This document shows positions 2,064 through 62,600 of a stretch of 64,000 bases of DNA, piece after piece. Below the pieces are notes generated by a model. The model was not told the DNA's origin and ran no database searches. It saw nothing but the letters and a program-made list of their open reading frames with translations. Every line of letters starts with the position of its first letter. Position 1 is the first letter of the stretch. Origin of the DNA: Amoebophrya sp. A120 (lineage: Eukaryota; Protista; Dinoflagellata); contig CAJINV010000004.1 of the NCBI GenBank assembly GCA_905178155.1, positions 6,364,828 through 6,428,827 on the forward strand, in the 5' to 3' direction. Position numbers and translations under genes: made by a program.

Positions 2064-4821
2064 TCATGCCATTGCCACCACCTCAAGCATCCGCTCATTA
2101 AAATCGGCTCCATTCGGAATGTACTCAAGAAAAGAGGACCGACATGTTCCTGCGCCGTTCTCCGCCTCAGAAGCGGAGGAAGCGCTGCTACAGGAAGCGT
2201 GCAACGCTGGCGGGGGGAGCGCAGCTTCTCTCGAGGACGTCGCTCCTCTTTCGAAGTACTTGCGCAGCACGGAAAAAATCGAGTCGTGGGCCAAGACCAG
2301 CACCGGCCGCATTTCCTGTTCGATCTCAATCAGCGTCGTGGTGAGCAGCTGGGCCGTATTGTTCGTAGTTATCTGGTATTTATTTTCCGAAGATCTTTGT
2401 CGCGTCAGTTGCGGACTGGACGGTTGTTCTGTTGACGGATTTGTCTTTATCGCTGACGCTGTTGTAGTTGTTCCAGCACTGCTGTAGTAGTAGCCCAACG
2501 CCGGGCGGATCCGCACACCAAAATCCTCGTAAAAACACGATCCTGAACTAAATTCTAGTGCAGTAGAAGCGGAGAGGGATAAGCTTTGCATCTGGTCTTT
2601 TGCTGTTGTTTCCGCGGACGAAAGGGTAGCAGCTTCCTCGTGGTCTTTAGCACCGCCACTTGTTTCCTGTTCTACAACCTCCTCAGAACCGCTTGTCAGA
2701 CCGTCCAGCATGATCTGCAGCACCATCTCCTGGTCCGAGTTTAACAAGGGGCTGAAAATGACTAGATCTTCCGCGGACAACACCTCTTGGTCGTCAACAG
2801 CGTCTTCAGTATAAAAATCAAGCCCCTGCCTCGCAGAGCAGAACGCCGTACTTCCCCGGACGAACCTGCACAGTGCTTCCGCCCGCGCAACGGTCGAGCA
2901 CGCATCTACAGACGCTAGAAAGACCGGCCGCCGGGACACGTGTATGGAAGCGTCGGAATTGAAATCGTCAAAGTTAAAATAGTTTGTGATGCATAAAATG
3001 CTAGACGCAAAGTGCCTGTCTTGCAGAGCAGCCAACTGAAGCCGATTATAATCCTGTTTGGGGTGTGAGACAGAGCTGCTAAAATAGCATGGCAAAAGCT
3101 GTTTTCCCTGCCCAAACAGCGTGACAAACTGGATTTCCATGCTGCCTAAATTTGTCATGCGCCACTTGCAAACTGGGCTCCAGCTGGTATCGCTTTTTTG
3201 CATTACAGATTCTTTCAACTTTGACGATTTCGATCCTGACATCCACATAACGTGCAAGGCCATCAGATACGGGAGAATGGTAACGGCCGCGCGGCCGAAG
3301 ATGTTGTGTGCCGTAACGTGGGAGGAGAGATTCAGCAGTTTTATGTAGGACACCGCGACATGCTCGTAGTTCGGGGAACTGCTCGTGCGGTGCAGCGACC
3401 GGCGGAAAGAACCTCCGGGCTTGGCAGAAGCTGGTGTTGTACCAATTGCAGCGTCCGTAGTAGTTGGACAAAAACTTGTTATACTCTCCTCGCTACTTTT
3501 CGATACTGCTCCAGAAGTTCTTTCTAATGTTGCGCACGAGTCCTCACCAGTCCTATGATCCGCTGTTCCTTGTTCTAGTACCTGTGGTAGTTGTATCTCT
3601 TCCTTTCCGATTTCTGTTCTCCACACAAATGACCTCCTCTTCAAGCGGCTCGTACACTTGTTCGTAGTGGAGGATCCGTTGCACCAGATCTTCGCGCGCC
3701 TTCCCCCGGTCCAAGCCCGCGTAGTCCGGGCTTTTCTCCAGTTTGATGTTCAGATTCGCGTTCAAGACCTCCGGCTCGTTGCACGTCGACTCCAGAAACA
3801 CAACCCCCACGTGGGCGCCCAAGCGGTCGTACAGCTTTTGCGCGACGCGTTTCCGCCGGTCGCGGGTCGTATTGGTCGCGTCGAAAATCGCACATTTTAA
3901 CCTCTGATATTGCAGCTCCTCAGGGATTTCATGGGGCTGTTGAACTGCACCCGAAGTAGTTGCGCGTTGTGGAGATGATGAGCCTGTGTTTGGAGTCGTG
4001 CTGCCTCCTGGTGCTCCTGTTGGTGTAAGTACACAGGTGGAACTTCTGGGCTTTGACCTGGTTCTCCTCCTAACATGATCCTGCGAGGTCGTAGCAGATG
4101 AAAGCCAGTCCGCGACGTGGTCTAGGACTAGCATGGCCAGCTCCTCGCGTCGGTTTTTCCGCGACGTGTTGGCAGAATCGAAATAGCTGCTGTCCTGCAC
4201 CCCGGTTTCCGTTTCCCGGCGGAAATTCCCCACGTTGAACACCTTTGTTTCGATGTTCAGCCAGTTCAGAAACCGCTGCAGCCGCAACGCGATGAAGCTT
4301 TTCCCGCGCGCGGGCAGGCCGACCATCACGAACACCAATTTTTCCGCGTCCGGGGTGTGGGAGAACCGCGCGACCAGGGAGCGCACGCGGGCCAACTCGG
4401 TGGGAACCGCCGGAACGCTGTCTCGCCGCTCCTGTTTGAGAAGGTTCGGATCTTCGACTCCGGCTTGCAGGTGCGGTGGTCTCAGGGTGGGCGAGGGCGA
4501 GGCCGCGGAGGCTGGATTTGGCTCAACACCCGTAGCGGCCGTCTCGGTGGTTGTGCAACCCCGATGCCCGACCTCCGGGGAGGAACCTCGACTGGGCGGC
4601 GCGGTCATAATTTCAGGCACGATTTCTTGTGCTACAGATAAGTTGCAACAGGTCTCCGGATACAGGTTTCTTTTCTTGCAAGAGCAGGAGTTTAGACGAG
4701 GAAATAAAACCGATCGAAGAAAACAAGAGGGTGCAGCCTGTGGATCAGAAAGAACTGCTGGATCTTCTTGAACTTCGATGCGGTGGGAATGGCCCAACAT
4801 AGGCCCTGCCTTTTGTCTCAT
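2064..4821 (-). CDS. PFKFB: 6-phosphofructo-2-kinase/fructose-2,6-bisphosphatase family protein; phosphatase half degenerate
   Basis: Kinase motifs VMVGLPARGKS, VFNVGNFRR, AIFDATNTTRDRR, FLESTC, KSPDY and SYIKL. ORFs 3553..4839 and 2064..3644 join through a plausible GT-AG intron at 3582-3633, plus the introner at 2946-3246. Confidence 0.85.
2946..3246. mobile_element. Introner family B (non-canonical intron with terminal inverted repeats)
   Basis: IR ggaagcgtcggaattgaaatcgtcaaagtt / aactttgacgatttcgatcctgacatccac, flanked tAT...ATa. Homologous along its length to 12231-12533. Excision gives LHVIHVSRRPVFL. Confidence 0.85.
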
Positions 4822-5049
4822 GATCAATTCCCTCAACAAGAAAAAGTCCGGAGAGCCGGTGGAGCCAGGACACGGGTAGGTAGGAGCAAAGCCAAAGGCT
4901 CACTCGCACTCGTACGTGCCAAAAGTAAAAAAACCGTTAAATAAACCTAAGACACTCCTGCATGAGCGAACCTATTCTTGTGCGGGCCAGCAAGTCACAT
5001 AACCCGTAAAAAGCTTCTGTAAGAGGGCAGCAACCTGTTCGACTGTATT

Positions 5050-7330
5050 CCCATTTCGCAACACTAGGAACGCCTGTAGAAGTTCGCTATTGTCGCTCAG
5101 GGAAACGCAACGCGGCTGCTGTCGTGTGGTCATGATGGTATCTATAGATATACACAGTCGCGCCAGCCCCCAAGCTGCGCGATTTGGTCAGCCTCCCATG
5201 CTACCGGCCCCGCGCGACATGCCCCTAGCCGGGGTTGCGCGCCCGGTGAATTTCTTGCAACATTCCCGCAACAAGAGCGCGCCCCTATTGCAGAACAGCC
5301 CGCGGCGCCGCCGGGCGATGCACTCCGGCCGGCGCCGGCCGCTGAAGCCAATTCACCGGGGCGGGCGCCCCGCGGGATGCGGGGCCGCCCGAGGCGCGCG
5401 CGCCCCGCCGCGCTGCGGGTTCGGGAGCCCAGTACGCGGGCCCGGCCAACAATGCGGGGCCGGCCTGGCGCGCGGCGCAATTAGCCAGGCCGCAGCGCGC
5501 GCCGCACCCGCGCGGGCAACCACCCTAAGGGCGGGCGGAGGCGCCGGCGGCCGGGCGGGGCCAGGCCAAACCAAAGGGGCCGGCCCGACGCCAGCCGGTG
5601 GCGTCGTGCTTCCTCGCTGGGCGTGCTGCGCTGCGTTGTAAGGCTGGCCCGGGGCTGGGTTTCAACAAGAGGCGCGCCACTTCGTTTGTTTTGCGTCCTG
5701 CCTTCTCAAAATTATACTTTTCTGCTTCTCTGGCACTTGGTTTGATTTCGGGGCGATGGCCTTCGGCGGGCTTGGCAGCGGGCCGGCCTGGCCACCGGCT
5801 GGCGGGGCGAACCCCGCACGGCCCCTCCCGCCTTGGTCGTCTAGGTTGCGAGCTTTCCGGAGTCGCGGCAAATTTGCCGCGATGCTGCTGCGACGTTTCC
5901 GGGGGGGGCCTTCGCCCGCAAGCGTTTGGAATTTGGCGGCCGTGCTTGCCCCCTGGAAGTGCCCGGCAACCGCCCCCCCCCGCCCCGGCGCCTTCCTGCT
6001 AAATCCCCCCGGAAGCACAGCGGCCCGCGCGGTTTTTTTTTGTCCAGCAGGAGCGGGCCGAAGTGCCGCGCGGCCGTGTTTTTCGCCGCTGCTAGCAGCC
6101 CGGGGCCGCGCAGCCCTTTTCGCTCCCGCGCGGCTCGCTTGGCCTCCTTCGCCAAGTCTGCCCGCCGTCCTGGGGCCGGCAAACAGTTGCCGCGGCCTCT
6201 GCTACCCTCCAGCGCAACAACGAACATGTGAGAACAGCGGGACGCCCGTATCGAGCGCGCTCCCCAGAATTGAGTAAATCGGGCCGCAGACGCAAAGCCC
6301 GGACGCAAGGCCCGCGGCGTACAAATAGATAGGCCCCCGCCATCTGGACAGAGGCAAACGGCCCCCGGAGTCCGGCAGGGCTACCGCCAGGAAAGAGGCG
6401 CCGCAAACCCACGGCCGCCGCGCGTCCCGTAGCCGCGCACAGCAGCGCACACGCCCCGCCATTGAGGCACGCCCCTCCCCTTGCGCGGGTTCCGCGGGAG
6501 ACGGCAGCCATCCCCCCCGGGGGGAGATGCCTATGCTGGGGCCCATGCCTATGCTGGCTGCCTTGCTAGTTTCGCCATTTGTTCATAGGGCAGAGCGCTT
6601 TCCAAGACAGCGCAACTCAGAAAACTAATGGGCCCCAGGTCCGCCGTGTGCGCGCCCCGGGTATAAGGGTGGTCGGCGCACTTCCCACGCAACCACGCGG
6701 CGCACACATGCGTCCTCTGCTTCTTAGGCTTCGGAACCTTGGGGGCCGGGGCCGGGGTGGGTCGCAGCCGGACGCGGCGCCACCGGTTCCCGGGGGGCCG
6801 CCGCGGGGCGCTTGTTTGAACCTTGCTACCTAGCCTATACCTTTTTCAGCTCCACCGCCAAATCATGGAAGCCCTTCGCCACCTCGTTGCGGGCCTGTTT
6901 GGTTTGGCTGGCGCCTTGAACCGCAGTGGCAAAGAGACCGGGCAAATTGACTACCGCTGCGGCCTTCTTGAACCGAGCCTGTCCTGCGCCGATTCTGGGA
7001 GGCCCCCGGAATCGGCCTTGGTCAAACTCCAGACCCGGCCGGGCGTCTTGCCGCCCGCGGCAGGGCAAGGGCTTCCGGTAAGGCCAGGCGGCCAGGCTTC
7101 TCACCCAACAGCGCCCGAAACATTCGCCCGACCTGCCCGCGTTGCCTTGCACCAGCGCCGCCCCGCCACTTCCGGCAAAATCTCTGCGGGCCCTTGGAGC
7201 ACAGGCACGGGACGCGCCTGCGCGGCGTTTGAACGGGGCACGCCACCCCCCAGACAATGCATGGGCTGCGGGGCCTACATTTTGTGAGCCCCGTGGTCAC
7301 CACTGAATCTCTCGAAGCAATGCAGTGTAG
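5050..7330. other. Very GC-rich island without a convincing gene; possible decayed repeat or TE relic
   Basis: Abrupt compositional shift. Only Ala/Arg/Gly/Pro-rich overlapping ORFs on both strands. Boundaries approximate. Confidence 0.45.
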
Positions 7331-12090: not shown

Positions 12091-15000
12091 TCACGGCGAC
12101 TTCGGATTCGAGGCCCAGTCGAAGACCGCGAAGAAGAAGCTGACGCGGCCCTTCCGCAAAAACTCCTCCGTCTTCCAGGGTCCTTGGTGGATGGCCGCGC
12201 GGCACAGCGATCCCGGCCGCTCGTGTTTATGGAAGCGTCAGGATCGAAATTGACAAAATCGAAAAATTTGTGATGCATGAAATGAATGACGCGAAATACG
12301 TGTGTTGCAGAGCAGGCAAGTGAGGCCGATTGTGAGCCTGTTTGGGGTTCTAGCTAGAGCTGCTAAAGCAGCATGAGAGAATCAGTCCTCTTTGCCTAAA
12401 CAGCATTACAAACTGGATTTAGCAGGCACCACCAGAATTTGTGATGCGCCACTTAGAAACTGGGTTCGAACTGGAATCCATTTTATGCATGACAAATTAT
12501 TTCGATTTTGTCAATTTCGATTCTGACACTTCCATAGTGCTCCCCGCCAAAGTACATCGCGAAGTCGCGCCCCGTATCAAATGCAAAAATGTCTGGGTCT
12601 GGAAGATTGGAAGACTTGTCATGCACATTTTGCACGACCCATGACGCCTGTAATGCATGATCCAGCATCACAGATTTTGTGACGGCTTTTTGATGCCTAT
12701 ACCGCATGAGGAATACCCCCTCCGCGTAGCAGAAACTGGACTCCTCTCGCTGCTTACGCAGTACAGATTTTCTTCGAATCCAAAGACAGCATGACAAGTT
12801 GCATCCTTCCAGACCCAGACATTTTTGCATTTGATACCCCGGCCGCGGGGCGATCACGCGCTTCGCCTCGGTTTGCTGCAGTTTCGGGTACTTCGAAAAC
12901 CGTTTCTCCGTGAGTTCCCTCGGCCTGCCGATGGTGTGCTCCTTGACCGCGAACTTTCGAATCGGCGCCCACCGGTCGTATCGCGGGTCTAGCGTAGCGG
13001 GTTCTACTACTACGTCCTCGCGTGTCTCGTTTTTCATCGGCACAGTAGTGGAATCATTTGTTGCAGTTCCCTGAAGATGTTCCTCCTCGACAAAAGCAGC
13101 AGCGGCAGGAACAGCAGCTCCACCTGTAGTACCCGGAGCTGGGACGCCGCTGATGAACTCCATCCCCTCGAGCAGGCGGCCGTCTCCCGCAGATGGACGG
13201 GGGGAGGCGGAGGGCGGAAGGTTTATTTGCTCTTCTCCCTCCTTTTCCCCGTCCGCACAAACTTCATTGTCCGGGTGCTGGTGCTCGGGCGGCACGACGT
13301 GATCCGCGAACTTTTCTTCTGCGAGAACTGCTCCGCCCTGGCACTCCCGCACCTCGTCGCGGATGTCCACGAGTTCAGTCGTGCAGGAAAGAAAAGAGAT
13401 CACGCCGTGCAGGTAGTAGAAGTGCTCGTCGATGTGCCACGGCGGCCCGTCCGAGCACTTCTCGTCGTCCGGGGACCGGACGATGCACTGCGCCATCCAC
13501 ACCAGCCGGTTCTCGTCCCGTTCCGGGCGGAGCATCTCCTTCGCGCACTCCGGCACCAGCAGCCACTGCTCCGCCAGGTACTTCGCCAAGTCGCACAGCC
13601 CCTTCGACAGCGTTTGGGCGAGGTCCAGGGAGATGCTCGGCTCCTCCTCCTGCTCGGAGGTTTCTTCATCATCATGCATCTTCTCTGGAGCTGCTTCTTG
13701 TACAACTTTTGGTCCATCTTCTTGAAGAACCGTCGCTGTTGGCCTACTTGTACCAGAACCTCCTTCATCTTCATCAGCCTGAACAATTTCTTCCTGGCTC
13801 TGCTCCGCTTCCTCCACGACATCTAAAAGGCGACTTTTAGCAACAAGTCCTGCTGGAGTAGACGCGGGGGCTCCACCAGAACCATTCTTGCTGTCAGTGT
13901 CATCATGATCCTCCTTCTTCTCGTCGTCCTCCTCGCCCAGTGGTTCTTGTGTGAAGAACCCGTTACTATTTCCACCCGGTGCTGCGCTAAAGGAAAAGGT
14001 CTTCATCTTGCGCAGCTGCTTATCGGTGGAGAACTTCCGGGGTGGAGGTCGGGAAGAAGCTGAAGCTGGTGCTGGAAGTTGTACAACTTCTTCTACTCCT
14101 GGAGCTTCCTTTTTCTCGTCCGCCCATGTTGAACGTGCTTCTGCTCCTTCGTGCAAAGTCGTCGCAATTGCGGTACGCAGTGGAGGAACGACCTTCGTGC
14201 CTTCGCTGTTCTTCTGCGTTTCAACATAATTATTCCCTGCTCCTTGTTCCAAAGAGCCGCCAACTACGGCCGGTGATGTTGAGGAGGCGCTAGTACTACT
14301 ACAGGGGTTATTTCTACCGCCAGAAGCAGCGCTGCACGTCTTTTGTTGACAAGAACTACTGCCAACAAAAGCAGCCTCCTGCTTGTTCTTCACACCCCGC
14401 GTCAAACTGCAGCGCAGACTTTCCGCGATCTCCTTTTCCGCGTTCTCCCACTCCTTATCGCTTAATTTCTCGTGATATGGATTGCAAAAATGTCTGGGTC
14501 TGGAAGGAAGTAACTTGTGATGCTGCATTTGGATTCCAAAAAAATCTGTATTGCATGAGCAGCAAGAGAAGTCCAGTTTGGTTTACGCGGAGAGGGGATT
14601 TCTCATGCGGAATAGGCATCAGGAAGGCCTCTAAAAATATGTGATGCTAGATCATGCATTGCAGGCCTCATGGGTCATGGAAAACCTGCATGACAAATCT
14701 CGCAGTCTTCCAGACCCAGACATATTTGCAATTCATACGTGAAGCTTTCGGCAATCAAACACCGAGGACAGCGGGAAGCTGTCGCCCGTCTTCCCGCCGC
14801 TGGCCGCGATCCGGTTGGCGCGCTTTTTCACACGCAGTAAGTCGTCGTTGTTGAACGCGTCCAGCATTTTTCGCACCGTGTCCGGCAACTGCCATTTCCC
14901 CGTACTTTGCTCCAGCTCAAAAAAGTCCTGCGCCACAACGGTCGCCGGGTAGGAGTAAGGGGACAGCGGCTTCGAATTTGCGTTTGACTGTTGTTGTATC

Positions 15001-18000: not shown

Positions 18001-19040
18001 TCGGAGGGTAAAGGGTGCATCACCGGGGCCTCGTGTTCTTGAGGCTGTGATCTACTTGCGGGAGAAGAGGACGAGGACGAAGGAGGCTGGAGCAATTCGC
18101 CGCCGTGGTTCATCTGCTGTGGCGAAACAAAGTCGCTGTTACCCAACTCCAACTTTTCTTCGGCGGAGACCAAAAATTCCTTGCCGGTTTGTCGGTCTTG
18201 CACTTGCTTTTGCTCGTCCAGCGGATTAGGATTTTTGCCATTGTAGTTCTCTTCGGAATCGTTCAGCTGTGAATAATTCGGCTCGTCTCCATTTTGTTCC
18301 CCCTCGTCGAAAAAGCTGTTGCGAGGGCGGTCACGCCCAACATCCGCATGGTCGTCTTCACCAGCATTGTTATCGCTTTCTATTTTCTCTTCTGGCGACT
18401 TTCTTTCCGATAGTAGTAAAATTTGCTGAATATTATCCCCTTCCGGGTCGTTCGTGGCTGAGAGGTTCGGGCTGGTCGATTCTTGTATCAAATGTAAAAA
18501 TGTCTGGGTCTGGAAGAATGCGCGATTTGTCATGCAGCTTTTCCATGACCCATGAGGTCTGGAATGCAGGACCTAGCATGACAGATTCTGCGCGATCTCT
18601 CTCATGCCTATCCTGCATGAGAAACTCCCTCGCGACTTGGTCAAAACTGGACGACTTTTGGTAATCATGCAAAACAGATTTTTGCATGCTTCAGATTTAG
18701 CATGACAAGTTGCATTTTTCCAGACCCAGACATTTTTACATTTGATATCTTGGCTGGGTGTCGTGGGCAAAACGGTTTCTTGGTTATCGGAAATCGAGTT
18801 CTCGCTGCCTTTCCGCTGCGTTTTTGCATCTTCGGGAGTGCTTGTTGACGACGTCCTGGGTAGTAGTTCTTGTAGCTGGGCGGGACGAGTGTCTTGATTT
18901 TTGCAAAGAATAATGTTGTCATTCATTTTGCAGGACAGATTTTCACTGTGTTCTCCGCCGGTCTGTTCTTGGGGGTCCCCGCTATTTTTCCCCGGGTTTG
19001 GGATCGCGGCCGAGTTTGGAGACGCAGTAGACTTTGGCAT
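12091..19040 (-). CDS. ~1956-aa protein: long low-complexity region plus C-terminal putative 2OG-Fe(II) oxygenase/cupin-like domain
   Basis: Removing 4 introners joins exons 19040-18745, 18486-14735, 14476-12834, 12575-12534 and 12228-12091 (5871 nt) with no stop. The C-terminus has PWHIDE...AIHQGP...GRVSFFF (HxD...H...R pattern). Confidence 0.7.
12231..12533. mobile_element. Introner family B
   Basis: IR ggaagcgtcaggatcgaaattgacaaaatcgaaa / tttcgattttgtcaatttcgattctgacacttcc, flanked tAT...ATa. Excision gives GEHYKHERP. Confidence 0.9.
12578..12833. mobile_element. Introner family A (256 bp)
   Basis: Perfect IR caaatgcaaaaatgtctgggtctggaag / cttccagacccagacatttttgcatttg, flanked tAT...ATa. 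Excision gives RPGYTGRDF. Confidence 0.92.
14479..14734. mobile_element. Introner family A (256 bp), opposite orientation to 12578
   Basis: IR ggattgcaaaaatgtctgggtctggaag / cttccagacccagacatatttgcaattc. Excision gives KLHVYHEKL. Confidence 0.92.
18489..18744. mobile_element. Introner family A (256 bp)
   Basis: IR caaatgtaaaaatgtctgggtctggaa / ttccagacccagacatttttacatttg. Excision gives SQDIQEST. Confidence 0.92.
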
Positions 19041-19685
19041 TTTTTCGGTTTGGGGAATCTACTCGCAAGCGAGTAGTAATAGCTTTTCTGTTCCTTTTAC
19101 ACTACTTTATCATACTCTACGCTGCAATTTGGGAGTCAGTGGGTATCTCTTTTTAGAGTATGTTGGAAACATAGAGCAAGGTTATAGAGGTAATATTTGT
19201 GCTCTTGCTAACGCGAAAATGGTAAACATAAAACTTCAACAAAACAACCAGATTCACACTGTGATTTGAAAAAAAAAATGAACGTGCTCACAATTCGTCC
19301 TCGTATTGGAACTTCCACTAGATTTTGCGAAGATCTTCAAGAAACTCGAGACAGTTCGAGTACTTTTTTCTTTCAGACCGTCTCTCCTGTTGAGGACATT
19401 GCGATCGTATTTTCGTGCGGCTTCATTTAGTTTTTCAAACACGTATTTGGATTTGCTTGTGCGTTCAAACGCTGATCCATGATTCCAAATTGACGTTGAT
19501 CTCAGTCATTTTCACATCATACGGAGCGCGCTCGGTGCGGAACAAACCGGAGCTATGACTAACAAACTTGGTGTCCTCCAGCTCTCGTGAATTTGTGCTG
19601 CTATAATTTTTGTCACTATATCCTTATTTCCTTTGGCTTCGATTCGATTTGCTCAACTCATTTCGATTTCGTATCATCATACATT

Positions 19686-19835
19686 TGTATCGTTACGTCA
19701 GAAGTAGTATATTGCCTGGAGCCCGCACGTCAAACTAGCCCCCAACTACAGCCGATATGCTCGTGAAGGATCGCGGGCGAAAATGTTGATCTTTTGCCGG
19801 ATCTTACGAGAGTCGAGAGCGCAGAGCTTTGCCAT
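19686..19835 (-). repeat. Split direct repeat B2 (3' terminus of the element)
   Basis: 19686-19820 is identical to 20246-20380 (135 bp); homology extends to tttgccat after a 7-nt insertion. Confidence 0.95.
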
Positions 19836-20009
19836 AGAGAGAAGGGGGCTAGGTGACGCCTGGGAGTGTGAGTGAAGTTGGAGTGAACTCTAACAAATGA
19901 TCACGAAGTTGAAATGAACAGGGCAAACCACGCACTTGTATCCCGCCCGAGGAGGCGGCGGATGAGTACGTGGGCCTGTGGCCTGGAATGAGAAGGGTGA
20001 GGAGGGTGG

Positions 20010-20245
20010 GAAAGGAAAAACAGATCGTTCTCCGTCCGCTAGGTCTGAGAATGAGGTGAATGGAGTGAGAGTGAAGTGATGGAATGAAGCGGATCACGTT
20101 TCGTTTAGCGTGGATGCGTGTCCATACCCCACGGAATGCAAACGAGCTGCCACGAGCGGCTTTACAGCCAATAACCTACTTCCGACTTCGCTCACACAAA
20201 TTGGATTCCAGACGTACTACTTCGTACTACTAAGGATCCATAATC
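20010..20245 (-). repeat. Split direct repeat A2
   Basis: 236 bp matching 33113-33348 with one mismatch seen (gtttAgcg vs gtttCgcg). Confidence 0.95.
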
Positions 20246-20388: not shown

Positions 20389-20494
20389 TTTACCACAATA
20401 GAACAGGCGGGGCGAGACGCGAGCGAGGCCGGCTATGAGAGCGCGAGCGTCTCGCAACGGGAACCAGGAATTTGTATGAAGTGTAAACTCATGC

Positions 20495-31136: not shown

Positions 31137-31138
31137 TT

Positions 31139-32519: not shown

Positions 32520-32558
32520 TTTGATGTGAGACAATGAAATGAGAACAGGAAGTCGAAG

Positions 32559-45864: not shown

Positions 45865-45931
45865 CCGGCTGCCGTCACTGGAGACGCTCTCGTAAGATCC
45901 GGCCTCGCTTGGTCGGCTCTCCCCGGGTTAT

Positions 45932-46075
45932 GCATTGCAAAAGTATCGCACTAGTATGAATTGCAATACAAATTTCCTCAGCGTGACAAATAAAATTTGT
46001 AATGCGGATTTAACTTGAGAAAGAAATTTGTAATGCGTGAATGGGATTAGTACGAGTACGATACTTTTGCACAGG
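45932..46075. mobile_element. Introner family D (144 bp), opposite orientation to 43802
   Basis: IR tgcaaaagtatcgcactagta / tacgagtacgatacttttgca, flanked tAT...ATa. Confidence 0.88.
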
Positions 46076-48678
46076 ATACGGGTGGTGCAGCGATGTTGAT
46101 AGTGCTCGTCCCTGGCTCATTTTGGTCGGTAGAAAGGATTTCTGCATTCGCCAGATCCGCCTCGTTTTCATCTTGCTCGGCGAGGACAGATATTTCCTTG
46201 TCCTCATCTCCGCCCACAGAAAGCACCGGCTGTTGTATAATGTCCTCTTCGCCAAGAACCTCTTCTTCACCAGCATCTTCGGAACTACCGCTACTACTAC
46301 CCTGCTCCGACGCTTGGTCCTCGTCTTCCCCGCTGATATCCAGCTCTTCGTTCATGTCGTCCGTCACGTATTTCAGCATCTCCCGCCGCATCGTGCTGTC
46401 AAAGGGCACCCCGGTCTGCATACAAAACTCCTCGGGAAACCGGGGAAGACAAAACTCGTCCACAAAGGGGTTCTTCGTGGCGTCTTCTAACCCCTTTTGC
46501 AGGTGCGTCAGGGAGGCCTGTGGAGTTGTTTTCGACCGATTACGAATTTAGAAAAAGTAAAAGAATGAGAATCCGAAAGCGAAACATTTTCTAAAGTCTG
46601 CAAAAATCTTTATCCAAAAAGAGAAAACCTATCCATTACGTTCAGGACGGTGTCCTTGAGCTGTATTGCGTGCATCCCTTTGTAAGCCCCCTCTACGTTA
46701 TGCCGCCCCTTCTTCCCCCCGAACGCCAGCCCGACCGACTGGACGACGTGGCGGCCGTCGCTGGACATAAAGGGTTTCCGCCGGTAGCACTTGTCGGTGC
46801 CCGTGGCCCAAAAGTGCCACCGCGGTTTTAACGCCCGGATCAACTCGCTCACCGCGGGAGAGGCGTTGAATTCGTAATTTTGCGGCAAAAAGTCCCGGTC
46901 CCGATGCAACTCCTCGGCGGGAACCAGGCTGTTTTTTTATTTGGCTTTTGATGATGTTCTGGTGGTGGTGACCGACCAGCATGGTTCATGTGGTTGCAGC
47001 ACAAAGTAAAGATGTAGTAAGTTGCGCCAGCACTAATATGCTGTCCAAATTCGGACACTCCTGGTTGTACACTCCTGGTTGTAAAAACGTTGCATATATT
47101 TTCTTATGAGTACCTTGTCAGCCCGCAGGGTCCCTCGGAGGTCAAGAGCAAATCTACCGGTTTTCCGTCTGCCAACTCATATGGATTGCAACTATGTCTG
47201 GGTCTGGAAGGTCGCAACTTGTCATGCTGTTTTTGGTTTCTAGGGAAATTTGTATTGCATGACCAGCAAGAGGGGTCCAGTTTGTGCTGTGCAGACAATG
47301 GACTTCTCATGCGGAAGGCGCATCAGGAAGCCCTCTAAAAGTCTGTGATGCTCGGCCATGCACTACAGCCATCATGGGTCATAAGAAATATGCATGACAA
47401 GTCTTGCACTCTTCCAGACCCAGACATATTTGCATTTGATAACTCAATAATGTGTTCGATGATCGGGCGGTTGTAAGCCAGGCCCGGGCTGCCGTCGGCC
47501 TGCGCCCGAAAATTACACCGGCAAAATTGCAGCGTTTTGTCAACCTCCTCCAATGGCTGGCCCACCCCCCACCCGTTGAACGTGAACCAGTCGATCTGCC
47601 CGTGGCAGATGTTGTCCTTATCCGGGTGCACAATCCGCGGAATGGTTCCGGACAGGTAGGCCACGCGCATGCCCTGGATCTCCTTGATGCCGCACCCGCC
47701 AATGTAGTGCAGGTTGTCGGTCACCTTCATCCCGTCGCTGAAGCCCTTCTTGGACATGTGTGGCTTGTGAAACGCGGTGGAATCCTGGTCCAGGAAAAAC
47801 AGGGGGATGTCGCACTTAATGCTGCCGTTCTGTGGTATGTGATAAATCAAATTTTTCTTTCTTGTTCACAAAGAACAGCGAGCTTGTTGAGCTGCCAGAG
47901 AAAGTGAAGAAGCAGCCTTGAGGACAAAAGTCGCGCTTATCGAGATCCATGCAACGTGCACGCGCACGCGTGCAACAAAAAATGTTTTCCATGACGAATA
48001 CACTGCCCTATGAAAAAATAAACGAATACCGCCATGAAGGGGGCCATCCGCGCGGCATTGGTGTCCGACATGAACTTCCCAACGCAGAAACAAACATCCA
48101 GCGGCCCCTTGCTTTTGTGCACAGCCGCAATTCGAGTGTACAGCGGTTGCAGATCGCCGTCGCACGTTCCCGCGAACAGAAGGCGGCGAACAAACGGCTT
48201 CGGTTTCGGAGGTCCTCGCTGGTTGCTTGCAATTATAGTACTGCTTGACGTCGCTGGTTGATGTTCAACTTCGACTTTCTGTTTTTTCTGCAGCGGTGGC
48301 TGCGACACTGGCTCCTCACGGTCGAAGGGGTCGTCTATGCGAGTGCACAAACCCCCTTCCCCGTTATTTGTCATGCAAAATGCAAAATCCAGTTGCTGCC
48401 TTGTGGCACTGTTTGCATGACGAAATCATCTGGAGGCCCAAATACTACTAAAATCAACGCATGAGCTTGTCATGCACAGCCTTCACGCGTGCTGGTGTTT
48501 CTATCGCTGTTCACGCCGTACAATTTATTACAAATGAGGGGGAGAGGGAGTTGTGCACCACTCTCGTATCATCGCTCCGCCGCTTGGTCTTCCGGCTCGC
48601 TGCGGGATCGATACTGCTGTTTCCTGCCGACGCCATGTTGTCGCTGCTTGTGGGCGGGGGCGGCGGCGGTGGGGGCAT
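46076..48678 (-). CDS. CWF19L1: CWF19-like 1/Drn1 N-terminal metallophosphoesterase-like domain protein; CwfJ C-terminal domains not seen
   Basis: Motifs LLFAGTCDG, VHKSKGPLDVCFCVGKF, NLHYIGGCG, RVAYLSG, VDLLLTSE, VSELIRALKPRWHF and YRRKPF. GT-AG introns 47830-48029, 46929-47113 and 46518-46639, plus introners at 48339 and 47183. Confidence 0.8.
47183..47438. mobile_element. Introner family A (256 bp), same orientation as 14479
   Basis: IR atgtctgggtctggaag / cttccagacccagacat. Excision gives IIELYELADGK. Confidence 0.92.
48339..48565. mobile_element. Introner, E-like family
   Basis: IR gtgcacaaacccccttccccgttatttgt / acaaatgagggggagagggagttgtgcac, flanked tAT...GTa (one repeat diverged). 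Excision joins RRSDD to DDPF in frame. Confidence 0.75.
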
Positions 48679-51448: not shown

Positions 51449-54400
51449 TCACAGGGAAAAAATCAAACTGCCGTCCAGCCAGCGCATCGCCCGGAGGTCG
51501 TACATACCCCATGGCGGACAGACCACCAGCGCGTTCGCCCATGCATTCCGCGTCACGTGCTCCGCGTACTGGCGCATCCCACTTTCCGAAAGTAAATCAA
51601 AGGGATACCGCTCCGACACATCCTCGCAAACCCGCGCTAGCAGCGCCAACTGGTCTTCCCGCGAAGAAAGTTCGAGCTGCAGATGGTAAACACGCGCGCG
51701 CAACGTGGTCAAATTGGCGACTGTAGCCGGATCGATTGATGTGACAGCCGGAGATGTAGTTGTGGTTCCTCCGGAGGAGCTCCTGCGCGTCAAACCGGCA
51801 CGAAGAGGTGGTAGTGTGGGTGTCGATGCCGGATGAGCTGCTCCTGCACTGGTTGTCGATTGTCCCGGCTGCTGATCAAGTAACCCTGGGGACGACCTTT
51901 CTCTACTCGTTGTGCCAACATTTTGATGCTGCTGCAACAATCCGAGACGACGTTGCTGAGGCTGAAACGGGTGTTGTTCATTATGATGTTCGTTTTGAAG
52001 ATCATAATTTTCGAACCCACTAGAAGTCCTCCTCCCTCTGCTCCGGAGCCGCTGCAGCCACCCTTCGAGCTGGTTTGCAGCGTTCACAGACGGGAATGGT
52101 CCGAACAGAATTGGCATTCGTTCTCCTCCCGTTGAAGACGGAGATGATGGGTCGCGCGAGGTCATCGGAGACTCGAGCTGTGAAAAATTAATGATGACTG
52201 TCTTTTTTTTTCAAAACTTCACCGCAGCCGATATTTCATATTTTCAACATGTCAAACCAAAGACAAAAATACGTGATCCAAGACTCGCTGCTGTTCTGCT
52301 TGTTGCGGCCCGGCGGACCCTTGTTCCATCGCCGGAACTAGCCCCGGCCCGGCCATCACCTCGCGCAGTCCATTTGCTTCTGCTTGCGATGCGTAGGAGG
52401 ACGGCTGCCTTAGGAGCTGTGCCAAGCGCAACATCGAGCCGAAAGATGATCCCATTGCAGGAGCCCCTATTTCCCCTCCTCCCATGGGAACAAATGGCTG
52501 GAACTGCGGCTCTGTAACCTGCTCTTCAAAACCCGGTGCCGCCGCCATGCCTGATGGTGAAGATGCCGTCTCGTTGTTACAATACCGCAGGTTGAAGATG
52601 TGCGGCGGGTGCATAGCTAGACTGCAAGAACCTGAAGTAGACCACGAGGGTGGAGCTGCTGTGTCAGTGCCACTTATCTCTATTGGTGTTGTTCCTGTCG
52701 CACCACGATGACCCTCAAGAAAAGCTCTTCGATGTTCATTCTCTGGCGGCCAGCACGACACATGAACCGGAAGGTGCTCCGGGACCAGCCCCTGTTCAGC
52801 ATGATCATTATCCGTTCTGTCCTGCAACGTAGTAGCTGCCATACTCATCTCCTCGGACTGCATTCTCTCAAACCACGGCTCGGCATCCAGCCCCTGCTCT
52901 CGAAGCCGGTCTACTTGCACTGGAAGCAAGGCGTTAGGGATCGGCGGAGTGGGCGGCCGCCGGAACAAATCTTCTACTGCCTGCTGTTCTCTGGGAAAAC
53001 GAAAATTATTGACAGCAATATTATCCCTACTTCCATCAGTCGTGCTGCGAGCCGAAACGTTACCAAGCTGAAGTATTTGCCGGCAAAGCTCGGTGGCGGT
53101 TGGCTGTTGATACGGAGGACCATTAGGATGCCTCTCCTGCCGGAGATGATTCTGATTTGCGGCCCCGGAATAAGATGAGGATGGTGATGATGATAAAAAC
53201 GGTCCTTTCGTGGTCTCCCCTATACCGAACGAGTGTTCTTTACTCGTCCCCGGAGTTGTAGGAGGTCCCATTTTGATCAGTTTCCGGTTCTTCAACCTGG
53301 CGCGACCACTGCCCGTTGCTGCCGATGGTGCACTGCTGCAGTTGTTATCTACTACTTCGCAACCAACCTCTGTGTTTGTCGAAGCCTCGCAAGAGCTCGA
53401 ACTTGCAAGCGGAGTTGATGTCAACATTTGGGGAGCTGTTACAGTCGACGCTGGGCCACCAGCAGGAAGCAGTTCTTCTTCTTCGACAGCGACGGGACCG
53501 TTGCGGTTGTACAAGGGTCGGTAATATGATGTCTCATCTACAGACATTTCCCTATAATTCCCCTGCTCTGTCCGCTGGTTCTTGGCATGCGAACATGACG
53601 AGGAGCTACTCGTCGTCTCTGTCGCGCGACCCTTAGTACTTCTACACGATATTGCGCGGTGCTGAAGCTGCCGCTGCACAAACCAATCCGTCACGTTCAA
53701 AGTAGGCACTGTGTTTCTTGTAACACAACTTCCGCTGCTAAGGTGTGCAGGAAGTACATCTCCGGAACAACTAGGAAGCGAGGACTATGAGCGTGAGAAA
53801 GTATTCATTTCAAAAATATTCACAGGGCCGAAAAAAATTTTTTTTGCGCAATTAGTGAACGCCCAGAAAAAAGGCTCAGCGACATGCGCGCGCGAGAGCT
53901 TCGCTGCGGCGCTTCATGTAGAAATCCTGGGCCAGAAAGCGCACGAAACGCGTTCGGCGACTTGCAGGGCCGAGAGATATCAAGGCCTACGCCTCAAGTG
54001 TGGTCCTTCCTCTCTAAAGAAAACGATGTGGCGCGCGCTTTGGCGGATTGCTTGCTAGGTAGCTGGGCGCCCTCGCTCCTTTGCGGGGACCCCGCGAAGT
54101 TTTTCTGCAGAAGCTGGAAAGGCCCACTTCGCCCAGGCGCAAGCGCTACTCCTCTAAAGGCCAAGGCTGAACTGAAATGCGCCACAGCGCCGGCAATGGC
54201 TGTTTTGCACCAAGGCGGACACCTCTCGCCCGCTTCGCTTCTCAATATTCATTTTCGAATCACGACGACACTGCGTTTCCGTTTTTATTAGCAGAAGCTA
54301 CTCCCACTTGATTTATCTAATATTCATCTGCGCAATTTGCGACAGCGAAAAACGCCAAAAAAGTGCGCACTTTCTGGGAAAAACAGGCGTTTTTTGGGGA

Positions 54401-55674
54401 GGTGAATACTTTCGCGTATCCCACTGCTATGCTCCTTCCAGACCAGCCCAAAAAGTAAAAATATTCATACCTCCTCTGAGGACGTCAAAAAAGTGCTTCT
54501 TTTCTGCTTGCAACCTTTGCGGCTTTTGGCAGCACACAAAGTTGCCGAGCTTGTCTATAGACTTGGCCAGCAGAAGCATCCTGGTAAAGGCCAGGCGACC
54601 CCGTCTTTTGCAGGGGTTTGCGCCTCGGCAAAGTGTGGCCGTCTAGAGCAACTGCTCTAATGCCCGCCACTTACCAGGATGTGCTCGAGCCCAGTCGGGA
54701 TCGAGCAACGCCTGTAGGGGCAAGGCAGCGCAGAGTGGCAGCTTCTTCAAAGCTTTGAGACCGTGATCTGCCGCCTGAATGCTACGAATGCTGCCACTTG
54801 TGGAAGTTGGCTTTGCATGTCGCCGGCGTGCAGGCCGTCCCCTGTGTGTTTGAAGGATCTGACTCTCGAGCGCCATCGACCGACTGGGCTCAGCAAGCGA
54901 CTTCCAGGTAGTACCTGCGTCGGGGCATCGCAGGCGCGTTAGCGCTCTGCAATGCCTCACGCACTTCGCCCCGGCACACCGGCTAAGGTGTGCAGGAAGT
55001 ACATCTCCGGAACAACTAGGAAGCGAGGACTGCGGCCCTGGTTCCAGCGTCGAAACGCCACTTGCATAGAAGTTGCTAGTATCGCCTTGCTCTTCTCTCG
55101 CCGACCGAGTGAAAGGTCTACCGAGGTCGCCAGCTGGTGGATAAAAATTGTTCACTCCCATGTGGGTGGACGACGATGTTGTTGTTTCAGAAGAAGCCCT
55201 CTGTAGAAGTGGTGGTAGTGGTAGTCCTCCTGGCAGTACTAAACCCGGCGTCAGTGCGAATCTTGTCGCACCACCAGCAACTCCAGGGTTGTAGTGCGCA
55301 TGATATGCGCTCGAACTCGCATAATTTGAAGAAGATGCTCCTGCACCTCCCGCGTTTCTACTTCTCCTGTTTGGTCGATTACGATCTCGTGTTCTAGGAA
55401 CTAGGCCTTGCCGTCCAGCAGCGAGTGGAGAGGGACCCATATTAGAGGACTGAAACCCAGAGTTGTACCCTGTCGCTACTACACCTTCATTCCCATACTG
55501 TTGTAGATCATCTTCTACCCGGTTGCCCTGTCCTGCTGCCGCTGAGTCGCAGAAGAAAAGCAAGCAGGCGAAAGAAACTAGCACGGGGCGACGCCGGCAG
55601 CTCACTGAGTAGCTGCGACGCACCGGGATAAACTGAGGGAGCGACCCTGGTGCTCGTCCCAGCCCGCCCGCCAT
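51449..55674 (-). CDS. Hypothetical secreted low-complexity protein interrupted by a 1.2-kb insert (intron or disruption)
   Basis: Signal-like VLVSFACLLFFCDSAAAG. SSLPSCSGDVLPAHLS is encoded twice, and the second copy is in frame with ORF 52252..53709. GT-AG intron 52178-52272 joins LDH|LESPM. Confidence 0.55.
53737..55031. repeat. Identical 50-bp direct repeats (53737-53786 and 54982-55031) flanking a 1195-bp insert
   Basis: gctaaggtgtgcaggaagtacatctccggaacaactaggaagcgaggact occurs at both positions. Confidence 0.9.
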
Positions 55675-56402: not shown

Positions 56403-58519
56403 TCACACCGTCCAGCGGTAATCGTCGCGAAACCATTTCTCGTTGGTTCTCAAATCCACGGTCAGTGTGTAAAGGAAATCCGAGTCTGGCCGGGAGGTCG
56501 TGCCAGGAAGTAGATGAAGTCCGACCGGGAAACTAACCACCACCGTGTCCGCCGCATATCCAGAGTATTCCCCGGGCTGGAACTTCCGGCAGTCGATGTC
56601 CAAAAGCGGCTGCATGGCCATGAATTTATCAAATGCAAAAATGTCGGGGTCTAGAAGATTACCAGGTTTGTCATGCATATTTTGAATGACCCATGATGTC
56701 TGCGATGCATGCCCTAGCATCACAAATTTTTAGAGGACTTTGTGATGCCTCTGCCGCATGAGAAATGCCCTCTCCGCGTAGCACAAATTGGAGTTCTCCT
56801 GCTGGTCATGCTGCATGACTTGTATTGCGCATGTATTGCATTGCAATACAAATTTTTTCAGAATCCAGAGACAGCATATACAAGTTTAGAACCTTCCAGA
56901 CCCAGACATTTTTGAATTTGATAGAATTTAAACAGCCGCAACTCCAGCTTTGGGTTTTTCAAGTCGAGGGCAATTGATTTCAGGAGGATAAAATTCCGTT
57001 CATACTCCATTTCTGAAACGGTCGATTCGTAATTCGCCATTTTCCTGTCCAGCGCCTGCATTAAGGCCGGTTGCTTTTTGTACTCATCGACGAAATCCCG
57101 CAGCGCTATCAAAATGAAAAATCCCCCCTCCCCATATCAAAACGGAAATTTGTGATGCTGATTTGTGGTCACAAATCGTCTTTGTCTTGCCTGCAGGCTC
57201 ATAGGAGCCATTTGACGTCGCATTTCAGAGCGAGTCTGTCATGCGCTTTCGACTACTACAAACCTGTTTGCCATGCGCAATTGCTAGCCTTCTGCATACC
57301 CAAACAGGGTCAGAAAATGCCACCAAGCACTTTCTGCAAGACAGATCTGATATGTGTACGCAAATCCAGCATCAGAAACTTCGTTGCGATATGGGGAGGG
57401 GGAATTTTTCCTCTCAATAAGCGCCGCGCCCGCTTCTAGCGAGAGAACCGTGTCTCTGGCTTCGTCGCACTTCATTTTGGAGGGGCCACTAGAACTAGTA
57501 CCAGCGACGTCGCTGCGGCCAGCTGTACAAATAGTAGAATCGCCGCAACGGAATTTAGCATCACGGTTTAACTTGTTGTTGTTTCCGCGGAATTTATTAC
57601 CGCGACTCGGCCACTTCGGGCCTCGCGGCCCAGTGCTGTAGTGCTGGCACTCCTGTGGATCACGGTCACCGAACGACCCCTGTGGCCGATAGTGGTCGTG
57701 CTGGAACACATAATCGGGCAAGGCCGCGGCTTCCGCCGCCGGTGGCAAAGATGTTGATGCACCACTGCTTCCTCGTGTCTCCTGCCGAGGGAAGTTGTGC
57801 TGCGCGATTACTACAGGACCATCTGACGATGAAGGAGGAGGACCACGTGGCAAAAAAACAGGACGTGGCACGACACTGCTGCAGCTTCCGGCAGTTGTAG
57901 CAGTGACTCCCCCCGCGAAATACGCTGGCTGGTCCGGATCGAAGGCGTTGGAAGTAGAATGCGCACGGTGTTCTTGTACATCGTCCTCTTGGCACGTCGT
58001 GGTCATAATGTCCTCGTTGGAAAGATTGCAATACTCGCGGACCAGGCGGTCATACGTGGGTAATATTAAACCATGTTCATCTACTACTCCGTGGTCAACA
58101 TCTGCTGCTCCCAGGTCATCATGACCTGAGGAAAGTGAATGGTCATCTGGTTCCAACGCCGGCGTTGCGTGGGCCTCTAGTCGTGCTGCCGTAGTCGTTT
58201 CATCCCGAAGAAAAGCGTTCCGCACCCGCTCTCGTTGCGTCTGCCGCTCCAAGGTGTCCACGTAAGGCTCCCTGCTGCTGCTGGCATTGCTATCGTAATT
58301 GTACGGAACTGAACCACGGCTGTTGTACGTGTACCCTGGGATTTCAACATCTCGCGGATGATGTTCTGGGGGCTGCAAAAACGCCCTCAAACCTCTGCTC
58401 ATGTTATTATACCGAAACATCTGCATCTGCAGTGCCATCGTGTTTGTCACGCGCCAGGCAGCAAGCAGCAACAGGGCCGCTGCGAGAGGTGGCGTCTTCG
58501 TTGCTGTAGCCTTTGCCAT
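56403..58519 (-). CDS. Hypothetical secreted protein, 3 exons
   Basis: Signal-like LAAALLLLAAW. Introner excisions give AALI|ALRDF and FKFY|KFMAM. Confidence 0.7.
56630..56920. mobile_element. Introner family A (291 bp)
   Basis: IR caaatgcaaaaatgtcggggtctagaag / cttccagacccagacatttttgaatttg, flanked tAT...ATa. Confidence 0.9.
57110..57416. mobile_element. Introner family E
   Basis: IR gaaaaatcccccctccccatatc / gatatggggagggggaatttttc, flanked tAT...ATa. Confidence 0.88.
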
Positions 58520-59678: not shown

Positions 59679-62600
59679 TTACGGACGAACCTCCCCATGG
59701 TCCTCGCGGAAAAAACCCCGCCTGGGGGTAAAGTGCCGTTTCCCGGTTTTGAAGTCTACCGTTAGCTCGTAGTGCGCTTTGCAGTTACCTCCCAGCGGAA
59801 GCTCGACGGGCACCGTGACCTTCTTCCCCTTGAGATCGACCGACTCGCCTTTGCCGAGGCTAATGCTGCAAGCGAGAAAATTAACCAGCTCGTGATACAA
59901 CTGGCGAATATTGTGACGAAAAATCCCCCCTCCCCGTACCAAAGCGGGATACTTCTGAAAATTTGTGGTGCTGATTGAGACCGCCAATCGTCTCTCGATA
60001 TTGCAAGAAGGCAAATCCAAAAACCTGGCCGCTTTATTCTGCAGGTAATTTGTCATGCTGCACGGCCTGCGGAGGACGTGCCTGCCTTGCTAGGCGCCTA
60101 CAGCAAAACGCCCCTACTCCCGCTTTGTACCTGCCTGCACTCCTCTACTGCAAGACAAAGCCGATTTGCGTACACAAATCCCGCATCACAGATTTTCATT
60201 TCGATATGGGGAGGGGGGATTTTTCCTTTTGATAGCGAAACTGGGAGGTTTTCTTGTCCTCGTACTCTCCCACGCGCACTCCATTCTCCCGTGCCCAACC
60301 GAGCAGCATTTTCTTCCAACTTTTAGCGCTGTCCGTTTCTATCTCCCCGCTCTTTGTTGCGCAGTTCAAGATGGTCGTGCATGGCTCCTCGTTGGGAGGA
60401 GATAAGGTGTCGGAGGTTTGTTCGCAAACTCGACTCGGACGCCTTGATTGGTGGGGCCGGACCACCTGCCGTAGTGCGCGCTCCAATTTACCATGCGGAA
60501 AGATCTCAGCCGCAGAGACAACGAACGGGGAAGAATCTTTACACTTTGCTGTCGCGCCGTGTGGTCCTGCACGATCTGAAGGGAAGTAGCTTTTCGTGTC
60601 CTGATCATGCCCGGTTGCAGCAAAAGTGGTCGTCGCACCACTCGATTTTTGCCACAGCATCTCTTTTGTTTTTTCCGGCAAATTATTGTTTTCCACTGTT
60701 AGCAGATACGGAACTGTTTGCGTGACCCCCCTGTCCTGGTCTACACTGAGCCGCAAGGGCACCAAAATCTGTAACCCGCGGGTGGTGTCCGATAGCAATT
60801 CTAGCGGCATATGCATCAGGGCCGAACTCCCGAGATCCTTCGTGAGCACAATGTAGTTCAACACGGCATTGAACTGAACATCAACCGGAGATGAACTACT
60901 TCTACTTCCCGTAAAAGAAGTTCCTACATGATCCGAGGTAGTTGTACTAAGCGTCTTTATTTCCACAGCTCGCGCGTTATACAGCCCGAGTTTTTCCGCC
61001 CACGCAGACAGTGCGTTTTTCTGCTCCCCAGCAATGGGCAGGCGGAAAAAGTCCGCTTTGTCGTATCCGTTCACCAGGTCGGCCAACGCTTGCTCCAATT
61101 GCTTCTGCGGCGCGCCGCAAAATTCTTTTTGATGTTTCCCAGTGTTGCAAAGATCTTCGACAAGGTGGCATTCCGCCGAGCTGGAGGCACTTGAACTACT
61201 ACGCTGTTGACCGCTGCACAGAGGTAGTTCTTGCGGAAAGAGCAATTCGTCCCCCCACTGCTCACTCGCTGCCGTAGTTTCAGGCTGAAGTAGTCCTTTA
61301 TCAAGGCTGGTACGAGGACAGCTTGATGCTGTACACTCCTGAGAGGCTCCTGCAGTAGAAGATGCAGAGGCCACGCTATACGGTGTGGGCAAAAGACCTG
61401 GGTGCAGCCAGGTAGAAGATTGGCACGAGTCGCACTTACAACCAGGATGATAGGTTTTTTTCCTATCGCACCCAAGAAGACCAGCGACATCGACGCCCCC
61501 AGGATATAGTAGTAGTTCTTCCCCACTTTCTTCGCTGATTTTAGCCAATTGACGATGTTGTGCAGCTGGTGCACCGCAGGTGTGCGAGGACGTGCTCCGG
61601 TTTTCGACGACACGGTGGAACTTGTAGAAAACCGCCTCCTGCTCTTCTTCGTCCTGGTCGGAAGTACAACTAGGACCGCGCACGCCAACATTTTGACCGC
61701 TCTTACTGCTGCTGCTGCCTCCCCGCCCGCGCGGCACGCGCGATGAGTCCCAATTTAGATTTTCCTGTCGTGGCAAAAAACGGATATCTCCCAAACCGAC
61801 ACCCGAATGGACGTCATAGTCCAGAAAAGTAGTCGGCGGTTCGGGGACGCCAAACTTCTCCTTAAGCCGAGCGATGGTGACGGAAGGCGGACTCTTGTTT
61901 CCCTTTTTTTCTTGCTCGGCACGTCGTTCCTTGTCGAGAATCCTTGCTAAAAGCTCTTGCTCTCGTAGAGATGGTGCGGTACTACCCTGTTGGTCCTCAA
62001 GCGGCACTGGTGCTCCTTCTTGCGTGCTGACGGCGCCCGCGGTACTAGCTGCGGCATCACCAGGTCGGCTCGCCCAGACCTCCGGACCGCTGGCCCGTCG
62101 GTCGCCGGCTTCCTGACGTGGTTTTTGTTGATAATGATAGGCGGCCTGGTGGCGGGGTTGGCTGTAATTATTGCTATACCCGTGTTGATGAAAATGAAAA
62201 TCCAGCCCGTGTGAAGGTTCAGGTTGTGTAGTTGTACTCTGCAGCCCGGAGGCATTGATGTGGTGCCATGGAACAGGTGCAACATCCTGTCCTCCTTGTT
62301 CCGGCCAGCCGTGGGCGGCGCCACTGGTGCTACCCGCATCATGGCCGCTCCAACTATGCCACCCCGCTGCCGCTGGCAAGGATCCCGTGCTTCCCGCATG
62401 AGCCGATGGTGCCGGGTGGTCATTTTGAAGATCCTCGCCTCTTTCAAATGCTCTTCTCCGACTCACATAATCATCATAGTGCCAGCCCCGCGGAGCCTCC
62501 TCGTGCCCGTGCGTCTGCCTGGTCTGCCTCTGCGGAAAGGTCGTCCAACTGTTGCTCGCGCTTCTGGGCGCCAGACTGGGGCGCCAGTTGCTCCCCCGAC

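Follow-up and report, generated by a model that had tools for sequence, protein, structure and literature searches.

A 64,000-nucleotide (nt) stretch of DNA from the dinoflagellate Amoebophrya sp. A120 (contig CAJINV010000004.1, positions 6,364,828 to 6,428,827 of the forward strand; hereafter the window, in whose own numbering positions are given) was found to contain 15 inverted-repeat elements, or introners, of 150-326 nt, all of which lay inside minus-strand reading frames. We found that the TAT and ATA at the two ends of these elements are their own inverted termini, and that the duplicated sequence is 5 base pairs (bp) of random target. At the sites checked, the removal junction was precise, with the element and one copy of the repeat missing, and two elements of opposite orientation were both removed from one gene. 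We favour, at somewhat better than even confidence, a model in which an integrase-like DDE transposase inserted sequences that resemble miniature inverted-repeat transposable elements (MITEs), and a ruler guided by their hairpin removes them from RNA. A preliminary description of the same sequence had proposed that 2 bp (AT) are duplicated at a TATA target and that the junction is restored to TATA.

Repeat and inverted-repeat scans sorted the elements into five similarity groups, A to E, and the 15 elements of the preliminary description were recovered by these scans. As had been described, TAT formed the first letters of all 15, and the last letters were ATA in 14 and GTA in one (48336-48568). 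One element scan needed a flanking repeat; a second scan, blind to the repeat, added the family C element at 39678-39951. Upon comparison of the flanks, the 5 bp immediately outside TAT and RTA were found to be duplicated, exactly in 10 of 15 elements and with identity at 69 of 75 positions, whereas other lengths matched at chance level (7 of 30 positions for 2 bp; match fractions of 0.20-0.33 for 3, 4 and 6-10 bp). In 100,000 trials in which the flanks were shuffled among the elements, 21 positions matched on average and never more than 49, against the 69 observed. TAT and ATA therefore belong to the elements; both ATs of the proposed 2-bp duplication sit within the inverted termini, and the actual duplication is 5 bp long and specific to each site.

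A search of public contigs with one family-A end pattern gave the wider sample, which comprised at least 128 loci; 80 of the loci listed share one assembly prefix. When family-A ends were closed at a fixed spacing with the flanks ignored, 107 of 130 anchored ends closed (the 23 unclosed ones were left out), and the closed copies carried an exact 5-bp repeat in 88 cases, a 2-bp repeat in 8 and a 6-bp repeat in none. All TAT...ATA inverted pairs in the listed loci were also catalogued, again without regard to the repeat. The resulting 247 elements fell into eight groups or more; the 5-bp repeat was exact in 194, had one mismatch in 30 and was worse in 23 (several being mispaired ends), and an exact 6-bp duplication occurred in none. 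A scan free of any terminus returned TAT..ATA in 211 of 333 pairs at a repeat length of 5. The 224 good copies contained 196 distinct 5-mers, a diversity that does not fit a fixed TA or TATA target of the Tc1/mariner or internal eliminated sequence (IES) type, and TATA was present in none of the 224 reconstructed empty sites. A genome-wide flank logo had been suggested earlier as a check on the TATA target; drawn from the listed loci, it was flat and revealed no TATA.

Each window element had 4-109 copies in the listed loci, and its depth in the DNA-like run X1 was far above single copy; none of the listed loci carried the window flanks, so that no empty-site orthologue was found among the matches listed. 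At the far ends, divergence was 1-2% at positions 1-3, and positions 4-7 were often unlike between the two ends. The terminal TAT was followed by 7 variable bases and an A-run, in agreement with the end logo, with the exception of family B, which had no A-run. Repeat mismatches (12 of 485, or 2.5%) were about twice as frequent as the 1-2% at invariant end positions, a weak comparison from which copies with more than one mismatch had been filtered out; on this slender basis, repeat identity shows no sign of selection.

Some additional features of the listed loci were also observed. At least three further TAT...ATA groups that are absent from the window (F, G and unclassified) obeyed the same 5-bp rule. 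Several family A copies of 399-697 nt combined intact ends and exact repeats with an unrelated interior (L012:571-1051, L040 and L059:1501-1899), and L006:2243-2483 consisted of an array of 17-nt units with internal palindromes. A whole in-frame codon at the centre of the repeat was commoner than expected (63, 41 and 35 of 139), possibly as a result of frame-calling bias.

The removal junction was examined in contigs of X3 and X6, which come from one sample and whose RNA status is the guess of a tool. They behaved as RNA-like, skipping the canonical GT-AG introns at 42519-42730 and 52178-52272 and showing zero depth in some intergenic bins. X3 record 9 linked 43793 directly to 43954, a skip of 160 nt that corresponds to the 155-nt element plus 5. 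The interval 45924-46078 (150 + 5) was bracketed, with X6 record 16 stopping at 45923 and X3 record 10 starting at 46079, and X3 record 13 and X6 record 19 both broke at 56621, the precise-removal edge of another element, of which one side was seen. In X1, which had a flat depth of about 45, contigs continued from flank into element unbroken. No abundant empty allele was therefore present in X1, which may be the window's own source, and the earlier suggestion to search DNA for excised alleles was answered to that extent.

The annotated A120 proteins encoded in the window, P0121 (a 100% identical match) and P0241, revealed precise removal at 5 of 5 junctions and the TATA junction at none; TATA was likewise not kept in the RNA-like contigs. 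At 2943, a PFK profile built from 72 homologue segments gave 25.5 bits, ungapped, for precise removal and 19.9 bits, with a 3-residue insertion, for the TATA junction. Independent frame calls on both flanks gave an offset of 0, as precise removal requires, in 31 of 31 usable copies (224 were examined, of which 122 were short, 65 ambiguous and 6 in strand conflict). Precise removal left an open frame at all 15 window sites, and 13 of the 15 elements contained a host-frame stop if retained.

The count of 13 out of 15 sites at which the TATA deletion had been reported to keep the frame was reproduced, and with corrected ends it rose to 14; as an excision rule, the deletion did not hold. It had seemed to work because repeat + TATA + repeat equals precise removal plus 9 nt, which adds three residues in the same frame. 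Both of the exceptions noted earlier were accounted for. The one at 40049 had a misplaced left end, the true start being 40033, in agreement with the family end and with a copy in locus L123 that is 88% identical over window positions 40033-40299; the repeat-blind scan gave both 40046-40285 and 40033-40298 for this element. At the one given as 45932, a stop arises only under the TATA junction. In the listed loci, the TATA junction would introduce a stop into 10 of the 31 coding insertions with strict calls and into 38 of the 139 with looser ones.

Several results provided clues to the removal mechanism. The two D elements were mutually inverted (global score of 191 vs 79), and both were removed from the one gene in which they lie. 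Family A was likewise found in both orientations (25 vs 14; 12 copies were left uncalled). In the 15 window elements, GT-AG or GC-AG did not arise in any of the six registers of precise removal, in line with the earlier statement that their ends lack GT-AG; 19 of the 224 copies had such a pair in some register on either strand. Among 136 oriented copies, G was not overrepresented at the first position of the intron, nor AG at its end, in any register. Where the two repeats were mismatched, the annotated proteins retained the letter of the upstream copy, which is at position 4 for 37634 and at position 3 for 39678; these two informative sites are compatible only with 4 or 5 upstream repeat letters being retained. 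Mismatches were distributed over the five repeat positions as 7, 4, 5, 5 and 7, which does not localise the cut. The two elements that were folded, 43799 and 12575, yielded strong predicted hairpins, with z values of -7.0 and -10.2, respectively.

A single motif, TTGT[ACG]ATGC (TTGTVATGC), was common to the families. In the window, 31 of its 37 matches lay inside elements, with at least one in each of the 15, against a null mean of 0.3. It was present in 232 of 247 catalogue members, with no group lacking it, usually at a distance of 30-50 nt from either end, and was strand-symmetric (96 sense and 95 antisense); the groups were otherwise alike in short matches only. The chances are about even that this motif is a transposase binding site, and a role in removal is also possible.

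A target duplication is the outcome of a staggered cut in transposition. In the model that we favour, a DDE transposase would have inserted the elements through a 5-bp staggered cut at a random target; their TA...TA ends make it about equally likely as not that this enzyme is related to IS3EU/GingerRoot or to retro-integrases. In the transcript, the paired inverted ends would form the predicted hairpin, and the element with one repeat copy would probably be cut out at a distance measured from the hairpin base, GT-AG not being read. Removal very probably occurs at the RNA level. The 5' cut would fairly probably fall at the first T or one base ahead of it, and the 3' cut 4-5 bases beyond the last A. 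The chemistry might be that of a dedicated endonuclease and ligase, as proposed for Euglena nonconventional introns, an analogy to which we give just under an even chance; a hairpin-guided spliceosome is a real, if lesser, prospect. The nuclease-ligase route was placed slightly ahead because removal is independent of orientation and reveals no GT/AG selection. As to the earlier proposal of one shared machinery, a single mobilising transposase family is plausible in view of the termini, the duplication length and the motif, whereas the identity of mobiliser and exciser is unsupported, because insertion looks like a staggered cut of DNA and removal was seen only in RNA-like contigs.

A number of results weigh against this model. 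RNA evidence was limited to 3 of the 15 elements, none of which has a mismatched repeat; contigs drop rare variants and are blind to lariats, circles and strand, and raw-read run X9 placed 0 reads on the window. The protein junctions are not independent of complementary DNA (cDNA), because the A120 annotation is transcript-based and used transcript alignments of the same organism, and a hairpin between short repeats is a template that reverse transcriptase can skip (PMC2923612). The PNPase profile was near-neutral (119.4 vs 117.1 bits), and a loose open-frame test on 160 copies separated only the unspliced state (precise 111, TATA 101, +1 90, +2 95, unspliced 5). In-frame cryptic GT/GC-AG pairs were found near 8 of the 15 elements, and the RNA-like contigs exclude them only at 45929, where five such pairs lie nearby and yet the contigs show the precise junction. 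Neither a transposase nor a long autonomous copy turned up in the window, and visual inspection of ten copies that were long or unclosed revealed no intact long element. Additionally, with one repeat base included, the intron would start N-U-A-U, like a 5' splice site minus its G. The 9 commonest non-canonical starts given for A120 in Table S4 of Farhat 2021 (PMC7789003) are all NT, which favours a spliceosome but may reflect aligner bias.

The last two points belong to the strongest competing explanation, which shares the transposon origin and the junction and assigns the removal to a U2-type spliceosome without U1, with the hairpin joining the ends, N-UAU acting as the 5' site and distance determining the 3' site. 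We regard it as a possible account, to be held tentatively. Most spliceosome parts were found in A120 while U1 went undetected, according to Farhat 2021 (PMC7789003), and a precedent exists in Fritillaria (PMC11282704). Canonical introns occur in the same gene as the elements, and the registers of 4-5 retained letters fit the two informative junctions together with the NT starts. Against it, no register is enriched in G or AG, and with both orientations functional and the motif strand-symmetric, no directional branch signal is evident. The same Table S4 lists NT starts together with AN ends, which is impossible for one register.

The other explanations fared far worse, and all four were rejected. 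Programmed excision of DNA in the transcribing nucleus, as for ciliate IESs, would suit short, TA-bounded elements that are lost precisely with one repeat, and RNA-like contigs are blind to where the loss happened; it is nevertheless very improbable, as the DNA-like contigs of X1, representing one life stage at most, cross the element-flank borders at single-copy depth, and this parasite is not known to have a separate somatic nucleus. Still less probable is that the mRNA retains the elements, with reverse-transcriptase skips giving the cDNA junctions and ribosomes bypassing the hairpin between matched codons. Hairpins with short repeats do suit template switching (PMC2923612), the 5-nt repeat always contains one whole in-frame codon, and of 30 mismatches codon positions 1-2 carried fewer than expected (7 against 12) and position 3 carried more (10 against 6). 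However, the same skew is expected from protein selection on the kept copy, the two repeats held codons for different amino acids at seven copies and at window sites 37634 and 39678, and efficient bypass would be needed at thousands of sites per genome. Mobilisation by a tyrosine recombinase, for example that of a 13-kb block in the window, with the 5 bp as overlap, is scarcely credible: 5 of the 6 window motif matches outside elements fell in that block, and a loose form of the motif occurred 8 times in its 12.7 kb vs 7 times in 47 kb, but 196 distinct repeats in 224 copies and an exact duplication of random target fit a staggered cut and not homology-matched recombination. The TATA rule has virtually no chance, since TAT...RTA in 15 of 15 elements and a kept frame in 14 are set against a 5-bp repeat at 92% with 2 bp at chance, contigs at 43799 and 45929 and five annotated junctions without TATA, and a stop that it creates at 45929 and in 38 of the 139 copies with frame calls.

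The individual elements, to which no strand was assigned, were as follows. Family B is represented by 2943-3249 (307 nt, exact repeat), whose host is a minus-strand 6PF2K/FBPase-like gene, and by 12228-12536 (309 nt, one mismatch). Four family A elements were 262 nt long with exact repeats: 12575-12836, 14476-14737, 18486-18747 and 47180-47441, of which 14476 and 47180 are inverted relative to 12575. The other members with family A ends were 37634-37887 (254 nt, one mismatch at sense position 4, the upstream letter being kept in P0241), 40033-40298 (266 nt, one mismatch) and 56627-56923 (297 nt, exact repeat). The family C element, 39678-39951 (274 nt), has two mismatches, at sense positions 3 and 5, and P0121 keeps the upstream letter at 3. 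The D elements, 43799-43953 (155 nt) and 45929-46078 (150 nt), both with exact repeats, lie in a PNPase-like gene. Family E consists of 57107-57419 (313 nt) and 59909-60234 (326 nt), both with exact repeats, and the E-like 48336-48568 (233 nt) has one mismatch. Elements 2943-3249 and 12575-12836 are stop-free and in the host frame, so that if unspliced they would be read through in frame to give a longer protein, in the manner of an exitron.

P0121 spans 39547-46768 on the minus strand and is PNPase-like, with RNase PH and KH domains; its gene contains four elements together with canonical introns such as the GT-AG intron at 42519-42730. At 40561-40720, P0121 fuses the PNPase-like gene to the next short gene, and RNA-like contigs end at 40719; an annotation error is possible. 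A homologue search with the gene at 47180 gave no match, and Rfam had no match anywhere in the window. The PFK-2-like gene changes frame at 3480-3560, where no inverted-repeat element is present, through an unrecognised intron or a frameshift, and its downstream phosphatase motif region looks degenerate. The regions 5000-7300 and 35000-37000 are GC-rich (about 62%) and apparently non-coding, and lie between unidirectional gene runs.

The block of about 13 kb at 19683-33348 carries split direct repeats (19683-19820 = 20243-20380; 20010-20245 = 33113-33348) and contains no TAT...ATA element. Its minus-strand open reading frames (ORFs) bear, by eye, motifs that we take to be reverse-transcriptase-like (DLKDCF, PFG, YVDD), RNase H-like and tyrosine-recombinase-like (SLRHGG...GGW...RY); these ORFs had no match in Pfam or the PDB. 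The block is likely a tyrosine-recombinase retrotransposon of Ngaro/PAT type with extra intron-bearing ORFs. At 53737-54981, the RNA-like X3 record 12 lacks 1,245 nt that lie between a pair of exact 50-bp direct repeats, and two ORFs are thereby linked in frame. This segment has no inverted ends and no GT/GC-AG in any register (one AT-AG), and the insert is partly multi-copy in X1; real removal, template switching and assembly collapse are each possible causes of the skip.

The finding, as corrected, is the already described A120 introner system, somewhat sharpened. Farhat 2021 (PMC7789003) described A120 introners with inverted ends of TAT, 7 variable bases and As, and direct repeats of 3-5 nt over the junctions; the legend of Fig. 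S19 gives 5-bp direct repeats with inverted repeats at the ends. The article counts 29,850 copies, leaves the mechanism open, sees no clear signature of splicing and excludes transposases as general mobilisers. The earlier claims of Amoebophrya introners with one end geometry across families and an open removal mechanism were right. The present elements share with that system the host, TAT ends, 3-5 nt junction repeats, genomic repetition and, at three elements, removal without GT-AG. Compared with it, the geometry here is strictly 5 bp and TAT...ATA, the target is random, a motif crosses the families, and a register of 4-5 letters is shown or suggested. We add the absence of target preference, removal of both orientations in one gene, the absence of GT/AG selection, the all-family motif, the cut register at two sites and the TA...TA likeness to IS3EU/GingerRoot. 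The random-target logo, cross-family motif, cut register and IS3EU/GingerRoot resemblance were not found in the literature searched, which did not extend to the Farhat figures, Roy 2023 or the A120 rows of Dataset S2 of Gozashti 2025, and no direct-RNA work or newer mechanism paper was found there.

We also compared the elements with other systems. The nonconventional introns of Euglena are defined by a terminal 3-bp pair and fixed spacers, N3-CDG...CHG-N5-6 (PMC12501133, PMC12621601), and are excised as circles (PMC11282704); for euglenozoans, both nuclease-ligase and spliceosome routes have been proposed (PMC12501133, PMC11282704, PMC12621601). Both systems have a MITE-like origin, paired ends, direct repeats at the junction, asymmetric spacers, no GT-AG and canonical introns alongside. 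However, the A120 ends are TAT/ATA instead of CAG/CTG, the spacers are 0-1 and 4-5, the long stems are family-specific, and the Euglena signature, with R beyond the boundary, was not found; the elements work alike without being members. The elements resemble IS3EU/GingerRoot (PMC10045372, PMC6839031) in TA...TA termini (15 of 15 here), terminal inverted repeats (TIRs) and the absence of a target motif, but were not filed there because the duplication is 5 bp and usually 6 bp in that group. Gozashti 2025 (PMC12130899) describes A120 introners with TIRs and copia-like homology (family 38) and without Ginger termini, and an integrase-related DDE enzyme of IS3EU/GingerRoot type would fit that homology. 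Dataset S2 of that work gave 0 matches to the organism name or the family-A motif, and its A120 family classification may bear on the IS3EU/GingerRoot link; no printed link between Amoebophrya and IS3EU/GingerRoot was present among the matches listed. Like the spliceosomal introners of Micromonas, Aureococcus and Symbiodinium (PMC9860276, PMC11282704), the elements are non-autonomous TIR elements with a target duplication that leave the mRNA unchanged, whereas spliceosomal introners carry or co-opt GY/AG, which the A120 elements do not in any register.

A bolder reading, which we consider unlikely, is that A120 has a spliceosome-independent RNA 'de-transposition' machine, separate in origin from that of Euglena, which binds TTGTVATGC or the base of the hairpin and repairs any exon interrupted, in whichever orientation, by a TA...TA element with a 5-bp duplication, the movers being an undescribed, 5-bp-duplicating sister group of IS3EU/GingerRoot. 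If this were true, the 1,245-nt skip would hint at action on other repeat-flanked inserts. The core layout has been published since 2021, and the TATA rule would have misdirected tests. For the question of how Amoebophrya disposes of its tens of thousands of non-canonical introns, the corrected geometry provides a testable rule: fixed TAT...ATA ends, a cut register within the 5-bp repeat that mismatched repeats could pin down across the genome, and a shared motif.

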